4,332 nt of DNA, taken from IMG/VR virus record IMGVR_UViG_2531839675_000018, one strand, 5' to 3'. The stretch is from a virus (Duplodnaviria > Heunggongvirae > Uroviricota > Caudoviricetes). The position numbers were made by a program, and so were the translations under genes. The notes beneath the pieces were generated by a model that ran no database searches, was not told the origin of the DNA, and saw only the letters and a list, made by a program, of their open reading frames with translations. Below, one piece after another: positions 1-4,332 of this stretch; position 1 is the stretch's first letter; each line of letters starts with the position of its first letter.

Positions 1-1
1 T

Positions 2-298
2 GTATCAAAAGCCGGTGAGCGTTATCGCCGGGCTGTGGCGCTTATTGTTCGCCAGCAGCGGCTGAAATTAAGCCTGTCCGGACGGCTGGCAATAAAAATT
101 ATTGCAGAACCACCGGATAAGCGCCGCCGTGACCTGGACAACATTCTGAAAGCACCGCTGGATGCGCTGACGCATGCGGAAGTGCTCATTGATGACGAGC
201 AGTTTGATGAAATCAATATTGTGCGCGGTCAGCCTGTGCCAGGTGGACGGCTGGGCGTGAAGATTTACGAAATCAGAGGTGGTAACGATGGCGCGTGA
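2..298 (+). CDS. rusA: Holliday junction resolvase RusA, C-terminal part (5' end lies upstream of the window)
   Basis: The reading frame is open from base 2 to the TGA at 296-298. The translation (…[30 protein letters not shown]…[11 protein letters not shown]…) aligns closely with E. coli RusA as I recall it (…[30 protein letters not shown]…GGRLELTITEM…). The ORF track starts it at an internal Met at 35, but the frame continues to the window edge. Confidence 0.88.
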
Positions 299-659
299 TA
301 TCCAGATGGTTCTTGAGCGATGGGGGGCATGGGCAGCAAATAATCATGAAGATGTAACATGGCCCTCGATAGCTGCTGGTTTTAAAGGATTAATCCCGAC
401 TAAAGTGAAATCACGTCCTAAGTGTTCTGATGATGACGCCATGATAATTTGTGGTTGTATGGCACGATTAAACAAGAATAATCAGTATTTGCACGATTTG
501 TTGGTGGATTATTACGTAGGTGGAATGACATTTATGGCTCTTGCACGTAAGCATAGATGTTCTGATGGGCTTATTGGTAAAAGGCTTTATAAAGCGGAAG
601 GTATTATTGAAGGAATGCTTATGGCTCTGAATGTCCGGTTAGATATGGATATGCGGTAG
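288..659 (+). CDS. Phage late-gene antiterminator Q (QuuD / Phage_antitermQ-like), 123 aa
   Basis: The ORF lies directly after rusA, as in DLP12 and other lambdoid prophages. The N-terminus [25 protein letters not shown] resembles QuuD-type Q proteins from memory, and the Cys-rich segment ([12 protein letters not shown]) fits the family. I prefer the ATG at 288 (GAGG at 275-278, about 8 nt upstream) to the GTG at 279 used by the ORF track. The start overlaps the rusA stop by 11 nt, suggesting translational coupling. Confidence 0.75.
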
Positions 660-750
660 GGATATATAGTGATGAGGGTTATGTTTTCTGTGTTTATAAT
701 TAACATGTTTATTTTTTGATGGTCATGTATTGTGGAAGGTAGATAAAATG

Positions 751-779
751 TTGCCTGGTGAATTGAAAATATTGATAAT
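751..779 (+). promoter_or_regulatory. Candidate sigma70 promoter (possibly the phage late promoter pR' region) upstream of the CPBP gene
   Basis: TTGCCT at 751-756, a 17-nt spacer, and GATAAT at 774-779. It sits in an AT-rich intergenic region about 90 bp after the Q stop, which is where lambdoid phages place pR'/qut. This is motif matching only. Confidence 0.3.
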
Positions 780-810
780 CAATCTTCATCATTAAATAAA
801 AGGAGTGCTT

Positions 811-1629
811 ATGTGGATTGTGTTAGTACTGTCACTGTCAACTCTCAGTTGGCATAAGGTAGTGGCTTTTTCATTGTTGACGGTGTCTGTTGTCCTGGCT
901 GTGCTTAATGATATTATTGATTGGTCGGTGTTATTTTTTGTTGCTACAATCGTTTTTTTTATTATTTTGAAGTTCAACTGGAAATATAACGCCTGGGCTA
1001 AATCTATATATGAAGTTGGCATAGTTTTATCAGCCATAGCATTATTTTTCCATCTATGGCCAGGGTTTCACAATCCTGTAGTGCTAAATTCTGTTACTGT
1101 TGGCCCTCAAAGTACTCCCTATACAATGTATTTTAATTTTGATAAAGCGCTGGTGCCATTTTTGTTAGTCCTGTGTACATCTTCTTTGTTTAAAAAAGAA
1201 GTAAAATCAGAAGTGTCTTTGTGGAAGTGGGGGGCTCTGTCGCTCTCTGTTCCTCTTATCCTGTTTTTGGCTGTTTTTTTTGGTGGATTAAAGCCAGAGA
1301 TTCATTTTCCTGAGTGGTTGCCAGAGTTTATATTGGCTAATTTGTTTTTTGTGTCTCTGGCAGAGGAATCATTATTTAGAGGGTATATTCAATCACGGCT
1401 ATCAGAAGTAACGTCTCCATTGGTTGCATTAATTGTGGCGGCTTTGTTGTTTGGTTTTTATCACTATTCAGGTGGTGCTTTACTTGTATTATTTGCCACG
1501 TTATCTGGTGTTGTGTATGGATTGTCATGGATGTGGAGTGGGCGTTTGTGGGTTGCCACCCTTTTCCATTTTGGTTTGAATCTGTGTCACTTGTTATTCT
1601 TTACCTATCCATTTTTAAAACATAATTGA
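811..1629 (+). CDS. CPBP family intramembrane metalloprotease (CAAX protease / Abi, PF02517-like), polytopic membrane protein, 272 aa
   Basis: The protein is highly hydrophobic with several predicted TM helices. It carries the three CPBP signature motifs in the canonical order: EExxxR (EESLFRGY), FxxxH (FGFYH) and HxxxN (HFGLN). AGGAG at 801-805 lies 5 nt before the ATG at 811, so I prefer this start to the track's GTG at 805, which overlaps the SD. The gene is AT-rich with ATA and CTA codons. Confidence 0.8.
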   Translation: MWIVLVLSLSTLSWHKVVAFSLLTVSVVLAVLNDIIDWSVLFFVATIVFFIILKFNWKYNAWAKSIYEVGIVLSAIALFFHLWPGFHNPVVLNSVTVGPQSTPYTMYFNFDKALVPFLLVLCTSSLFKKEVKSEVSLWKWGALSLSVPLILFLAVFFGGLKPEIHFPEWLPEFILANLFFVSLAEESLFRGYIQSRLSEVTSPLVALIVAALLFGFYHYSGGALLVLFATLSGVVYGLSWMWSGRLWVATLFHFGLNLCHLLFFTYPFLKHN

Positions 1630-1770
1630 TTTTTTCTATGGTTTTAAATTTATAAGACTGAAAAATAGCAGGACGTGACATTTGCATGAAAAATATGCAC
1701 GGCAAAGCATTTACGTACGTAAAAAATCAGGTATGCTGTTAAGAGTGGTTATTTCGCCGCATAGCTTGAC

Positions 1771-1792
1771 CCCGCCTCTGAGCGGGTTTTTT
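1771..1792 (+). terminator. Rho-independent terminator candidate
   Basis: CCCGC (1771-1775), loop CTCTGA, GCGGG (1782-1786), followed by TTTTTT (1787-1792). The middle GCGGG can alternatively pair with CCCGC at 1796-1800. The stem is short (5 bp). Confidence 0.5.
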
Positions 1793-1915
1793 GTGCCCGC
1801 AAAGTAGCGCAGTGCGTTAAATGTGCTGGTAGTTATTAATACAGGTCTTTCAGCTTGCTGGCTTTTTCGACAAGAGTTATTGGTGTGTCACGTTAACCGG
1901 AAAGGGTAAAAAGAC

Positions 1916-2155
1916 ATGCTGAAACAGCAGGATATGACAGAAACCGCCAGAGTTGTGTTTGATGAATTAAGCGTCACCGAACCGGCGACGGTCGGGGAGA
2001 TTGCGCAGAATACGTACCTTTCACGCGAGCGCTGCCAGTTAATACTGACCCAGCTGGTTATGCGGGTCTGGCAGACTATCAGTTCGGTTGTTACAGACGC
2101 CTTCAGTCCTGAAGGCTTTTTTATTTGTGGTAAATGGGCGGCTGGTGGGTGTTAG
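1916..2155 (+). CDS. Small hypothetical protein (79 aa), possible winged-helix DNA-binding protein (PapI/FaeA-like pattern)
   Basis: An SD-like AAGGG lies about 9 nt before the ATG at 1916. The segment VVFDELSVTEPATVGEIAQNTYLSRERCQLILTQLV has the helix / xxTxxEIA / recognition-helix pattern of small winged-helix regulators such as PapI or FaeA. The similarity is by eye only. It sits 94 bp upstream of, and co-oriented with, the AraC-family gene. Confidence 0.45.
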   Translation: MLKQQDMTETARVVFDELSVTEPATVGEIAQNTYLSRERCQLILTQLVMRVWQTISSVVTDAFSPEGFFICGKWAAGGC

Positions 2156-2183
2156 CGGCACCTGTCAGTCCTTTGCTTATGTG

Positions 2184-2214
2184 TTGATGATAATTTACCT
2201 TTTGGGGCTATAAT
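2184..2214 (+). promoter_or_regulatory. Candidate sigma70 promoter for the AraC-family gene
   Basis: TTGATG at 2184-2189 and a perfect TATAAT at 2209-2214. The spacer is 19 nt, which is longer than optimal. It lies in an AT-rich region 36 bp upstream of the start codon. Confidence 0.3.
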
Positions 2215-2249
2215 TGAACTAACCAATTGCTAATGAAAGTAAAATTATA

Positions 2250-2963
2250 ATGGTTGTTGTCTGTTCAGTTATCATGGTTTGCTCCCCAATTAATATTTTT
2301 CTTGAAAAGGATACGTTGTCACTTAAGCCCGGCTCAGTCGTTCTGGCCACCAAATGCATCAGGGCGCTTTTCCTTATGCATTATGGCAAAGTTAAAATTT
2401 TCGATATAAACCATTCCATAGTAAGTCAATATCTGGAAATTCAGCATAAGCTGACAAGAACTCATCTGACTGACGTTCCGCTTTATCTGTCACTGGAACC
2501 CAACAACCCTGCGTTGGCTGAGGCTTTAATTACCAGCCAGAGATTTTCCGGAGATACCACGGATATGTTTCTTATGATGGCATGCCTGTCGCTGTTTGAA
2601 TCAGATGAACGGATATTATTATTTTTAAGTGGATGTTTATCCAGTATAAGTGCCAAAGTCAGGGCGATAATTCAGACAGATATATCAGCAAGCTGGACGC
2701 TTGGTGCGATTGCGTTACGCCTGCATATGAGTGAGAGTTTGTTAAAGATAAAACTGAAAAATGAAGGGCACATGTTCAGTCGCTTGTTGCTGGAAGAGCG
2801 GATGCGTGTTGCTGTCAATATGTTATGTTCCCGGCATGGATATGGACAGGCTGTAGCAGAAAAATGCGGTTATTCAAGCTGGTCCTACTTTATTTCTGTA
2901 TTTCACCGCTATTATGGCTTCCCGCCAGACAGATATGTATCCAGGCAAGGGCTTGATTATTGA
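2250..2963 (+). CDS. AraC/XylS-family transcriptional regulator, YdeO/GadX-like (prophage-encoded Psr/PatE-type regulator candidate), 237 aa
   Basis: The C-terminal region has the AraC-type HTH (…WTLGAIALRLHMSESLLKIKLK…AEKCGYSSWSYFISVFHRYYGFPPDRY). The N-terminus MVVVCSVI… and blocks such as ISESLLKxKLK and AExCGYxSxSYFI match E. coli YdeO as I recall it. By my hand translation the gene has about 7 ATA, 3 AGA, 3 AGG and 3 CGG codons in 237 codons, and it is AT-rich. Confidence 0.85.
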   Translation: MVVVCSVIMVCSPINIFLEKDTLSLKPGSVVLATKCIRALFLMHYGKVKIFDINHSIVSQYLEIQHKLTRTHLTDVPLYLSLEPNNPALAEALITSQRFSGDTTDMFLMMACLSLFESDERILLFLSGCLSSISAKVRAIIQTDISASWTLGAIALRLHMSESLLKIKLKNEGHMFSRLLLEERMRVAVNMLCSRHGYGQAVAEKCGYSSWSYFISVFHRYYGFPPDRYVSRQGLDY

Positions 2964-2991
2964 TTTTCATCTGATTATTATTTTTTGACCC

Positions 2992-3067
2992 AGCCCTTTA
3001 GCTCAGTGGTGAGAGCGAGCGACTCATAATCGCCAGGTCGCTGGTTCAAATCCAGCAAGGGCCACCA
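2992..3067 (+). tRNA. tRNA with anticodon CAU, closest to tRNA-Ile2 (ileX-like, lysidine-dependent AUA reader); ileZ-like phage tRNA
   Basis: Hand-folded cloverleaf: D-stem GCTC/GAGC, anticodon loop CT-CAT-AA, T-arm GCTGG-TTCAAAT-CCAGC, and an encoded 3' ACCA. Overall it is close to E. coli ileX as recalled. It has A:C mismatches at positions 1:72 and 27:43. A Met identity cannot be excluded from sequence alone. Confidence 0.75.
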
Positions 3068-3074
3068 TCACATA

Positions 3075-3151
3075 CCGCCATTAGCTCATCAGGAAAGAGC
3101 GCCAGCTTTCGAAGCTGGTTGCGCGGAGTTCGGGTCCCCGAAGGCGGTCCA
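3075..3151 (+). tRNA. tRNA-Arg (anticodon UCG), atypical
   Basis: Hand-folded cloverleaf: D-stem GCTC/GAGC with GG in the D-loop, a perfect anticodon stem CCAGC/GCTGG with loop TT-TCG-AA, and an encoded CCA at 3149-3151. It is atypical: C1-G72, a mismatch at 6:67, a mismatch in the T-stem, and T-loop TTCGGGT with G where A58 is expected. It could be a functional phage tRNA or a degenerate copy. Confidence 0.55.
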
Positions 3152-3164
3152 TTATCTGTATCCT

Positions 3165-3241
3165 GCGTTGTTAGCTCAGCCGGACAGAGCAATTGCCTTC
3201 TAAGCAATCGGTCACTGGTTCGAATCCAGTACAACGCGCCA
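3165..3241 (+). tRNA. tRNA-Arg (anticodon UCU; reads AGA)
   Basis: Clean cloverleaf: acceptor GCGTTGT/ACAACGC, D-stem GCTC/GAGC, perfect anticodon stem ATTGC/GCAAT with loop CT-TCT-AA, T-arm ACTGG-TTCGAAT-CCAGT, discriminator G and an encoded CCA. Confidence 0.85.
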
Positions 3242-3255
3242 CACTTATTTTCCCT

Positions 3256-3281
3256 GGCTCGCTTTTGCGGGCCTTTTTTTT
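3256..3281 (+). terminator. Rho-independent terminator immediately downstream of the tRNA cluster
   Basis: GGCTCGC (3256-3262), loop TTTT, GCGGGCC (3267-3273) giving a 7-bp stem with one G-U pair, followed by eight T residues (3274-3281). Confidence 0.7.
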
Positions 3282-3478
3282 AAATGTCTCACAATTCAGG
3301 CGGTTGACTGTTGTCTGGTTTGCGGGGAGTTTGTTAAAAGAAACTGGCATGGTGAATCCCCCTGTGCGGAGGGGCAATCAGCGAGTAGGTATATGGGATA
3401 ATCGCGGATTCAGGTGCTGGTACTGAATTCACCGGGAGGCACCCGGCACCATGCAATGGCACATAGCGCCACTCTCCA

Positions 3479-3502
3479 GCCCCTCTCCGGAGGGGCTTTC
3501 TT
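3479..3502 (+). terminator. Hairpin with weak U-tract (terminator candidate, + strand)
   Basis: GCCCCTC (3479-3485), loop TCCG, GAGGGGC (3490-3496) form a perfect 7-bp stem, followed by TTTCTT. Confidence 0.35.
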
Positions 3503-3508
3503 ATGGAC

Positions 3509-3537
3509 AAAAAAAGCCCGCGCAGGGAGACGCGGGC
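3509..3537 (-). terminator. Rho-independent terminator on the minus strand (orphan: no convincing minus-strand gene upstream of it)
   Basis: GCCCGCG (3516-3522), loop CAGGGAGA, CGCGGGC (3531-3537) form a perfect 7-bp GC stem. On the + strand it is preceded by seven A residues (3509-3515), so on the minus strand the hairpin is followed by UUUUUUU. Confidence 0.55.
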
Positions 3538-3605
3538 GGCAAGGAATAAACAACAAAACGTGAAGTAATATTTCAGCTGGCGAATAATATCCGACAGTAA
3601 TCACT

Positions 3606-3628
3606 CTGCGCAATAGCGCGGCCTTTTT
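3606..3628 (+). terminator. Hairpin plus T-run (terminator or attenuator candidate) about 100 bp upstream of the esterase gene
   Basis: CTGCGC (3606-3611), loop AATA, GCGCGG (3616-3621) form a 6-bp stem with one G-U pair, then CC and TTTTT (3624-3628). Confidence 0.35.
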
Positions 3629-3730
3629 CGTATTGCGGGCTGTTGTCTCTCTTCTGCCATTGTCCTGTAACTTCCGGATTTCAGCCCGCTCATCATTTTA
3701 CTCACAATATTATCCCGGCCGGGAGGATTC

Positions 3731-4332
3731 ATGGCATTTAAACACTACGATGTGGTCAGGGCGGCATCGCCGTCAGACCTTGCTGATGCACTTGCGCAAA
3801 AAATTCGTGAAGGATGGCAACCATACGGTGGGCCGTTTTCTTCGTATACGGATGATGGCGCAGCACTTATTCAGGCGATTGTCGCAGAAGGTGATGTGAG
3901 CACACCTGTTGTGGTGAAGCTGACAGGTGGAGAAGGTGCAGTAATCAGCGCCACCAGCGACCCCGGGTATTACTTTGTTGTGGTTCTGGCAGGGCAGTCA
4001 AACGGCATGTCGTATGGTGAAGGTCTTCCGCTGCCGGAGACATATGACCGTCCGGACCCGCGCATTAAGCAGCTGGCGCGTCGCAGTACGGTGACACCGG
4101 GCGGTGTCGCCTGTAAATATAACGACATCATTCCGGCGGACCATTGTCTGCATGATGTGCAGGACATGAGCCGCCTTAACCATCCGAAAGCGGACCTGTC
4201 AAAGGGGCAGTACGGAACCGTGGGGCAGGGGCTGCATATCGCCAAAAAATTGCTGCCGTTTATACCGGCGAATGCGGGCATTCTGCTGGTTCCGTGCTGT
4301 CGTGGTGGTTCAGCGTTCACCACCGGAGCCGA
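3731..4332 (+). CDS. DUF1737-domain / sialate O-acetylesterase (NanS-p-like, SGNH/SASA family), N-terminal part (3' end lies beyond the window)
   Basis: The frame is open from the ATG at 3731 to the window end; it is missing from the ORF track because it has no in-window stop. GGGAGG at 3721-3726 lies 4 nt before the ATG. The translation MAFKHYDVVRAASPSDLADALAQKIREGWQPYGG…YYFVVVLAGQSNGMSYGEG… contains a GQSN block typical of SASA/SGNH esterases. A gene of this type follows the tRNA/stx region in Stx phages (established knowledge). The segment is GC-rich relative to the cargo. Confidence 0.8.
   Translation, partial: MAFKHYDVVRAASPSDLADALAQKIREGWQPYGGPFSSYTDDGAALIQAIVAEGDVSTPVVVKLTGGEGAVISATSDPGYYFVVVLAGQSNGMSYGEGLPLPETYDRPDPRIKQLARRSTVTPGGVACKYNDIIPADHCLHDVQDMSRLNHPKADLSKGQYGTVGQGLHIAKKLLPFIPANAGILLVPCCRGGSAFTTGA

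Follow-up and report, generated by a model that had tools for sequence, protein, structure and literature searches.

The interval between antiterminator Q and the tRNA genes of prophage Sp4/CP-933N: a probable mosaic of a conserved late-leader core and two cargo slots

Introduction

Does the AT-rich DNA that separates the antiterminator gene Q from the tRNA genes of a lambdoid prophage constitute one inserted unit, or is it a composite of parts that come and go separately? We have addressed this question for a stretch of 4,332 nucleotides (nt) from a tailed phage (Caudoviricetes; IMG/VR record IMGVR_UViG_2531839675_000018), referred to in what follows as the window. Its + strand carries, in this order, the 3' part of rusA, Q, a gene for a membrane protease of the CPBP family, a small open reading frame (ORF), a gene for an AraC-type regulator and three tRNA genes. 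An earlier note, made from the sequence alone, had described positions 660-2991 as an AT-rich three-gene cargo block inserted between Q and the tRNAs and possibly expressed with the late operon. The analysis reported here favors, with a probability that we put at roughly 0.8, a mosaic in which a conserved late-leader core is flanked by a first cargo slot holding the CPBP gene (Z1787) and a second holding the AraC gene (psrA), the two genes being expressed in the manner proposed below.

Results and Discussion

Architecture of the interval

The features on which the argument turns are listed here with their coordinates in the window, strand and the evidence used to define them.

288..659, +: antiterminator Q gene, Q21 family, 123-126 amino acids (aa); left boundary of the interval
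660..1709, +: cargo slot 1, the AT-rich CPBP cassette, from the Q stop codon to the -35 element of the candidate late promoter (breakpoints, GC content)
811..1629, +: CPBP (Rce1-like/Abi) intramembrane glutamic protease gene, Z1787 of EDL933 OI-50 (PF02517, motifs, primers)
~1710-2175: conserved core comprising candidate pR', tR', a 65-aa ORF (frameshifted) and a second terminator
1710..1792, +: candidate pR'/tR' module, 82 nt (comparative evidence, putative promoter)
1916..2112, +: frameshifted copy of the conserved 65-aa ORF, the first ORF after tR' (alignment, RefSeq, PHROG 331)
2099..2122, +: second terminator-like hairpin, GCCTTC-loop-GAAGGC followed by a T-run (terminator scan), overlapping the stop codon of the intact 65-aa ORF
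2176..2988, +: cargo slot 2, the psrA cassette, occupied by a DNA methylase in related phages (breakpoints, GC content of 40.3%)
2250..2963, +: psrA (Z1789/ecs1087), a YdeO-like AraC/XylS regulator (domains, EDL933 identity, literature tags)
2992..3241, +: tRNA cluster ileZ (CAU), argN (UCG), argO (UCU) (ARAGORN, Rfam and RefSeq, the last as tRNA-Ile, Arg, Arg); right boundary
start at 3731: nanS esterase gene (RefSeq)

Positions 660-2991 are exactly the gap between the Q stop codon (659) and tRNA-Ile (2992). With a GC content of 40.0%, as compared with 46.9% in the rusA-Q segment and 54-55% in the DNA downstream, this is indeed the AT-rich interval of ~2.3 kb that the earlier note had pointed out. 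The windowed GC calculation which it had proposed establishes that the AT-richness holds overall but is not uniform: values of 28.5% at 660-810, 37.7% in the CPBP gene and 28.2% at 1630-1700 are followed by 48.9% at 1700-2175 and then by 40.3% at 2176-2991. Two AT-rich cassettes, 660-1709 and 2176-2991, are therefore split by a segment of 48.9% GC.

In pairwise BLAST comparisons with relatives that carry other cargo, homology is lost at 635-652 and regained exactly at 1710, and in comparisons with methylase-carrying relatives it is lost at 2161-2186 and regained at 2989. The three parts also differ in their distribution among 5426 complete E. coli genomes, the set to which all genome counts given here refer. 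The central segment (1725-2170) occurs in 2157 of them, at 4686 places, while the psr cassette is found in 726 (1325 places) and the CPBP cassette in 572 (577 places). O157 genomes contain two psr copies and one CPBP copy, from which we deduce that psrB, the second psr copy of O157, has no CPBP neighbor. The gene content downstream of Q in individual loci is as follows.

C311: CPBP, stx1d; no psr
R1: CPBP, 65-aa ORF, DNA methylase; no psr
S88: WYL gene, 65-aa ORF, psr-like gene, the same tRNAs
GN05476: ORF6N gene, 65-aa ORF, psr-like gene
ETEC1734: 82-aa ORF, 65-aa ORF, methylase
A34 and a Stx2k phage: psr-like gene, preceded by Q of a different type
Stx2 phage Stx2_95: 65-aa ORF, methylase, tRNAs, stx2
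Stx2 phage WGPS2: content of Stx2_95 plus a pair of reverse-strand genes that separate Q from the 65-aa ORF
SfV: terminator, 65-aa ORF, methylase, holin

Because each of the two cassettes occurs without the other, and with separate sharp breakpoints, CPBP and psr do not form one unit; on this comparison they appear to assort independently, as two separate morons. Two properties expected of such elements are seen in both, namely variable presence at the same site with sharp boundaries and a base composition (28-40% GC) distinct from that of the flanking phage genes (47-55%). The notion of a cargo block thus stands for the CPBP and AraC genes, which are variable and AT-rich, but not for the middle third, which belongs to a conserved core, nor for the block as a whole, whose genes seem to move separately. 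The starting assumption that the tRNAs normally come close behind Q does not hold either, as Stx2 phages and SfV carry the 65-aa ORF and a methylase in that position.

An AT-rich island of three genes that arrived as a whole in the gap from Q to the tRNAs, and whose expression is shared with the late operon and starts at a pR' directly after Q, would account for three adjacent ORFs on the same strand in an interval that is AT-rich overall, and for the complete arrangement in 542 genomes. It is hard to reconcile with a middle third of 49% GC that is widespread conserved core, with the many loci in which CPBP and psr are found apart and have sharp breakpoints of their own, and with a promoter-terminator module that follows CPBP while nothing conserved is seen directly after Q. 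We consider such an island extremely improbable.

The occupants of slot 1 were surveyed in the 80 closest relatives of Q (81-99% identity) in IMG/VR. The 82-nt module lies 531-3039 nt after Q in 76 of the 76 loci where both were found. The lc porin gene occupies the slot in 58 cases, CPBP in 7 and an ORF6N gene in about 9-12; in the others there is a reverse-strand gene for a lipoprotein, an ORF with a signal peptide, or several genes. The seven CPBP loci continue with psr (4), methylase (1) or holin/lysis genes (2). CPBP has thus repeatedly taken up a cargo slot for which the lysogenic-conversion porin genes lc and nmpC were already on record. The lc gene of PA-2 and nmpC of DLP12, which lie between Q and the lysis genes, sit in this same slot, between a related Q and the same 82-nt module; they are located on the opposite strand and encode an outer-membrane porin, whereas the slot in the window holds a same-strand gene for an inner-membrane CPBP protease. 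With the leader of Stx2 phages and SfV the window shares the terminator, the 65-aa ORF, the second hairpin and ileZ-argN-argO at 82-93% DNA identity, and it differs from them in having psrA in place of the methylase, an extra CPBP cassette before the promoter and an empty stx site (about 3280-3284).

Further occupants of slot 1, seen in IMG/VR contigs, are a reverse-strand gene for a 159-aa lipoprotein with the lipobox LITGC (L040 5940-6646) and a 124-aa ORF (L030 767-1296). An internal Met of the latter opens a signal-peptide-like segment, and its C-terminal part is basic. Envelope or secreted proteins seem to be common in this slot.

Identity of the prophage

Positions 1-3786 of the window match many E. 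coli O157:H7 chromosomes at 99.8% identity, and for the CPBP and AraC segments the identity with O157:H7 genomes is complete (100%), EDL933 being among these genomes in the case of the AraC segment. In EDL933 and 86-24 the region is part of a defective lambdoid prophage that adjoins yccA and also holds relBE, hokD, an "ECs1072 family" gene, insertion sequence elements and a PerC/Pch regulator gene. On the basis of the chromosome identity, the yccA neighbor, the ECs1072-family gene, and the Z1787 primers and psrA locus tags discussed below, the window is the late-control region of O157:H7 prophage Sp4/CP-933N, an already known locus. The earlier note knew of no described role for its gene combination as a unit; both cargo genes have in fact been described, Z1787 in PMC2654852 and PsrA in PMC10877973 and PMC13502914. 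The note had also stated that its proposal would fail if the same arrangement, with an assigned function, turned up in a well-characterized phage or if the block belonged to the core of its lineage, and each of these was encountered in part: the arrangement is that of a reference O157:H7 prophage in which one gene has an assigned function, and a portion of the block does belong to that core. The apparent novelty of the "three-gene block" is thereby removed, since it is the late-control region of Sp4/CP-933N in reference genomes of enterohemorrhagic E. coli (EHEC) O157:H7. We are dealing with ordinary mosaic phage architecture and no new three-gene system.

Candidate late promoter and terminator

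The left edge of the conserved core is formed by the 82-nt module, the elements of which can be placed as follows.

1710-1715 and 1732-1737, +: pR' hexamers TTTACG and TATGCT, separated by a 16-nt spacer, with a predicted start near 1744
conserved initial transcribed region of the module: GTTAAGAGTGGTTAYTTCGCC
1771-1786, +: GC-rich hairpin of tR', followed by a T6 run at 1787-1792 (terminator scan; fold energy -17.9 kcal/mol)

As a unit of its own, the module is conserved at ~85% in ev017, PA-2, 1W, Perceval and other lambdoid phages in which the flanks are unrelated, and comparison with relatives revealed no conserved element directly after Q in the window. In phage ev017 it is located ~140 nt upstream of the holin gene, with the porin gene lc/ompC between Q and the module, an arrangement that recurs in the classic PA-2 lc sequence. 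In Stx2_95 the module comes directly after the Q stop codon, and in SfV its hairpin is annotated as a rho-independent terminator. These placements, together with the terminator annotation, lead us to assign 1710-1792 as a probable pR' with its early terminator tR'. We have also counted in favor of the assignment that the Q of the window is of the Q21 family. The protein matches the Pfam profile PF06530 at 174.5 bits and is similar to the Q21 structures 6P18/6JNX (E of 1e-7), and RefSeq labels the position 'antiterminator Q family protein'. Cassettes of this family consist of the Q gene and an adjacent pR', a Q-binding element (a direct repeat with two 8-bp subsites), a sigma-dependent -10-like pause element and a terminator.

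Some further observations concern the same segment. GTTA is repeated 10 bp apart, at 1738-1741 and 1748-1751. No Rfam family was found over 1700-1800. The StxS/PR' transcript of Sp5/Sp15 was considered as the identity of the region after CPBP and rejected, as that transcript is 258 nt long; the prophage small RNA (sRNA) HnrS, reported in 2026, was likewise rejected, since it maps to Sp9, Sp10 and Sp12 and not to Sp4. In C311 the hexamers after CPBP are retained (TTTACG...TATACT) and a reverse-strand 105-aa ORF comes next, before stx1d; late-gene and toxin control may differ in that phage. Finally, the rusA and Q frames overlap by about 11-20 nt, depending on whether Q starts at the GTG at 279 or at the RefSeq position, 288.

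The small ORF and the second hairpin

The small ORF downstream of tR' had been put forward as a putative winged-helix protein, a description that is poorly supported. Alignment with the intact 65-aa ORF of R1, S88, Stx2_95 and Stx2k reveals a 1-nt deletion near 2062, and RefSeq records a 'frameshifted' pseudogene of the TrmB family, so that in the window the small ORF is a pseudogene. The window copy gives no Pfam hit. For the intact 65-aa protein the winged-helix matches in Pfam are all sub-threshold (TrmB at 18.0 bits with a cutoff of 25.6, MarR_2 at 14.7, DprA_WH at 14.4), and the protein belongs to PHROG 331 (E of 1e-37), a family without an assigned function. The second hairpin, which overlaps the position of its stop codon, has a fold energy of -11.1 kcal/mol (z of -2.4), and across five loci the stem is conserved and the loop variable.

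The frameshift is present in the O157 group that is 100% identical to the window, and the copies of O111:H8 and O121:H19 (98.2-98.4% identity) are annotated as intact hypothetical proteins.

The AraC-type regulator

The AraC protein contains HTH_18 (36.6 bits, cutoff 33.6) and HTH_AraC (35.3 bits, cutoff 26.6) domains and is 31% identical to K-12 YdeO over 237 aa, its full length. YdeO is also the best NCBIfam model (NF007407), so that the label given to the gene by the earlier note is confirmed; the score of 104 bits does not reach the equivalog cutoff of 348, and the protein is a YdeO-like, paralogue-like relative and not YdeO itself. The richness in rare codons claimed for the block is evident in this gene, where 7 of the 17 codons for Ile are ATA and 6 of the 13 for Arg are AGA or AGG. 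The ileZ and argO tRNAs decode AUA and AGA, rare codons that are heavily used in psrA.

The gene is 100% identical to an EDL933 gene located two genes after Z1787. PsrA and PsrB are reportedly the secretion regulators of EHEC O157:H7 dealt with by Tree et al. in 2011 and Yang et al. in 2015. A 2024 review places psrA as z1789 on OI-50 (PMC10877973), and a 2026 paper by the discovering laboratory gives it as ecs1087 in Sp4 (PMC13502914). From the EDL933 identity, the position after Z1787 and these published locus tags the AraC gene can be recognized as psrA, where the step from Z1787 to Z1789 assumes consecutive numbering. The likeness to the EHEC PsrA/PsrB regulators is then one of identity, the window gene being psrA itself: YdeO-like, AT-rich, prophage-borne and near a Pch (PerC) regulator gene.

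A role for psrA has already been assigned by experiment, linking carriage of this prophage to acid resistance and type III secretion. PsrA raises GadE and YhiF, as a result of which the GAD acid stress response is turned on and type III secretion encoded by the enterocyte effacement locus (LEE) is repressed, and it contributes to persistence in sheep; PsrB, a 90%-identical paralogue, binds directly to the promoters of gadE and hdeA and increases resistance to acid (PMC10877973). Regulation of psrA involves Hha/H-NS-related silencing and induction after attachment (PMC13502914). With YdeO, GadX and AppY, the activators of the acid-fitness island, PsrA has gadE as a common target according to the literature, the difference being that PsrA is prophage-borne. 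Both accounts of PsrA (PMC10877973, PMC13502914) are silent on its position with respect to pR'/tR' and on the alternative methylase cassette.

Ahead of psrA, ATGATA-16-TATAAT (2187-2214; 10 of 12 matches) ranks first among the promoter-like sites of the window and is kept in the psr cassettes of S88 and Stx2k. Further promoter-like sites, with 9 of 12 matches, lie at 720-792. The scan returned 15 sites as compared with 8.1 +/- 3.0 in shuffled sequences, so that single hits, these included, are weak.

A promoter-like sequence TTGATT-17-TATTAT at 2953-2981 on the + strand overlaps the psrA stop codon directly upstream of tRNA-Ile and could give Q-independent expression of the tRNAs.

Expression of the cargo genes

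The arrangement of these elements suggests how the two genes may be controlled. In the lysogen pR' would fire and its transcripts would end at tR'. Because psrA lies behind two terminators, with the best promoter-like site just upstream, it would be transcribed alone from a promoter of its own, presumably the one at 2187-2214, and would be subject to the silencing of AT-rich DNA. Transcription of psrA alone fits the published Hha/H-NS-related silencing and post-attachment induction. Upon prophage induction, Q-modified RNA polymerase could proceed through both terminators into psrA, the tRNAs and nanS. Since CPBP is upstream of the candidate pR', it would be outside the late transcript, and of the two cargo genes only psrA could ride a Q-dependent transcript. 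The terminator scan predicted no terminator between Q and CPBP, and its transcription may start in the AT-rich DNA just ahead of the gene or reach it from the early operon through Q. The suggestion that the block is expressed with the late operon may consequently apply to the AraC gene, which Q-modified polymerase could enter from pR'/tR', but not to CPBP. With the candidate promoter located after CPBP, prophage induction should affect the two cargo genes in different ways.

The leader module is present in up to seven copies in O157 genomes. With several copies per genome, Q from another induced prophage might act in trans on the Sp4 module and switch on psrA, which bears on the coupling of induction, acid resistance and colonization.

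The CPBP protease

The CPBP gene starts at the ATG at 811, not at 805, and is preceded by the Shine-Dalgarno sequence AAGGAG at 800-805. Its product matches PF02517 with 70.6 bits (cutoff 22.4) over residues 171-260, and all three CPBP motifs (EExxxR, FxxxH and HxxxN) are intact, as EESLFR at 185, FGFYH at 214 and HFGLN at 253, so that the assignment of the gene to the CPBP/Abi family in the earlier note is confirmed. Several hydropathy peaks are distributed across residues 12-265, and the motifs are situated within hydrophobic segments of a polytopic membrane protein. The Pfam domain, the three motifs and the polytopic membrane topology are in common with the CPBP/CAAX-protease/Abi family (PF02517; bacteriocin-immunity 'Abi', LyrA/SpdC-type). 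The window gene has no bacteriocin, ABC-transporter or sorting-signal partner, and its scores come nowhere near any of the NCBIfam equivalog cutoffs for myxosortases and ABC-CPBP fusions.

A search with tblastn against 50,697 phage records gave no match to CPBP, so that the gene is seen only in prophages and IMG/VR contigs. Homologues of ~50% identity are stand-alone chromosomal genes across Enterobacterales, including many that are non-pathogenic. The chromosomal neighborhoods of these homologues in Hafnia (between modF and galE) and Dickeya offer no conserved partner and no functional clue. Another E. coli prophage has a CPBP gene of 62% identity as the immediate downstream neighbor of a Q gene of the PF06530 family. 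Based on its family and on the slot that it has in common with lc, a lysogenic-conversion function in the envelope, by which incoming phage or membrane-active peptides are excluded or the cell is made immune to them, may be proposed for CPBP; we offer it tentatively, at somewhat less than even odds. A more far-reaching proposal, that the gap between a Q21-type Q and its late promoter is a general hotspot for envelope or anti-phage conversion cargo, exemplified by the lc porin, the CPBP protease, a lipoprotein, a signal-peptide protein, ORF6N and WYL, and that Z1787 is a new prophage exclusion/immunity factor rather than a host-directed virulence protease, strikes us as unlikely.

Several observations weigh against the mosaic, or against the expression and function proposed for its parts. 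The first is that 542 of the 572 CPBP genomes also carry psrA in the same arrangement, so that in the sampled population the two genes are usually co-inherited. With regard to the late promoter, both pR' hexamers match consensus at only 4 of 6 positions, the site was not listed by a generic promoter scan of the window, the -35 region differs in relatives that have more divergent Q alleles, and the Stx1d prophage of strain C311 (L006 5035-5145) shows replacement or degeneration of the initial transcribed region and the terminator. Concerning the role of CPBP, PADLOC-DB 2.0 (E <= 0.01) contains no defense model that matches the protein (nor one that matches PsrA), and the sole experiment on Z1787 points to a host-cell phenotype.

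That experiment concerns the gene of the window, as the published Z1787 reverse-transcription PCR primers (PMC2654852) match it exactly at 828-848 (+) and 1303-1322 (-), which identifies the CPBP gene as Z1787. Jandu et al. (2009) reported Z1787 mRNA in uninduced cultures and a level 2.7-fold higher with HEp-2 epithelial cells. They further found that deletion of Z1787 in EDL933 abolished the block of interferon (IFN)-gamma/STAT-1 signaling, as monitored by STAT-1 phosphorylation, and that plasmid-borne Z1787 was partly inhibitory in HB101 (PMC2654852). These findings form the case for Z1787 as a released virulence protease that blocks the IFN-gamma/STAT-1 pathway. Complementation was only partial (PMC2654852), release is unlikely for a polytopic intramembrane protein with its active-site motifs in hydrophobic segments, and homologues of similar stand-alone type, ~50% identical, are chromosomal in many non-pathogenic Enterobacterales. 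Moreover, as the deletion is placed immediately before pR' and psrA, polar or regulatory effects could have contributed. A 2012 publication by this group made no mention of Z1787 and presented the factor as a secreted protein yet to be identified. We regard a released protease as improbable, and the 2009 claim deserves re-examination.

The frequent co-inheritance of the cargo genes raises the question of whether Z1787 and PsrA form a coupled pair that is selected in LEE-positive Shiga toxin-producing E. coli, with the protease processing or sensing a host-contact signal and feeding it into PsrA-GadE control of type III secretion. The genomes with the whole arrangement include O157:H7, O145:H28, O111 and O121 at 98-100% identity. 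The increase in Z1787 mRNA on HEp-2 contact (PMC2654852) and the reported activation of PsrA/GadE after attachment (PMC13502914) are in keeping with such a pair. The K-12 homologue ydeO adjoins safA, a membrane connector gene. Some Gram-positive CPBP proteins are generally known to modulate sensor kinases. Each gene is, however, also found with other partners, the promoter-terminator module and the second terminator separate the two, psrB lacks a CPBP gene, and the spread of one prophage type explains the co-inheritance. A functional coupling therefore has, in our estimation, little chance of being correct. Within the mosaic, the co-occurrence of CPBP and psrA is linkage by descent of one prophage type and not an obligate association.

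Sequence downstream of the tRNAs

The region beyond the tRNA cluster contains an empty stx insertion point at 3279-3285, where homology to Stx2_95 runs to 3279 and resumes from 3285, stx2AB (1.3 kb) being located between the two in Stx2_95. A hairpin with a T8 run at 3256-3281 precedes the empty site. Further downstream, 3318-3508 (+) matches the Rfam sRNA family STnc100 (RF02076) over the full length of the model with 138 bits and an E of 1.7e-31, and the match ends in a terminator-like hairpin at 3478-3497. At this position RefSeq has only a partial hypothetical-protein pseudogene, on the opposite strand at ~3337-3462 (L001 12337-12462). The + strand hairpin at 3478-3497 converges with a terminator-like hairpin on the - strand at 3537-3516. 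Such converging hairpins fit the 'convergent sRNA genes at the moron insertion site' that have been described in Sp3, Sp4, Sp5 and other prophages (PMC4104026), and a short - strand sRNA gene of the AgvB/AsxR type is possible near 3478-3537.

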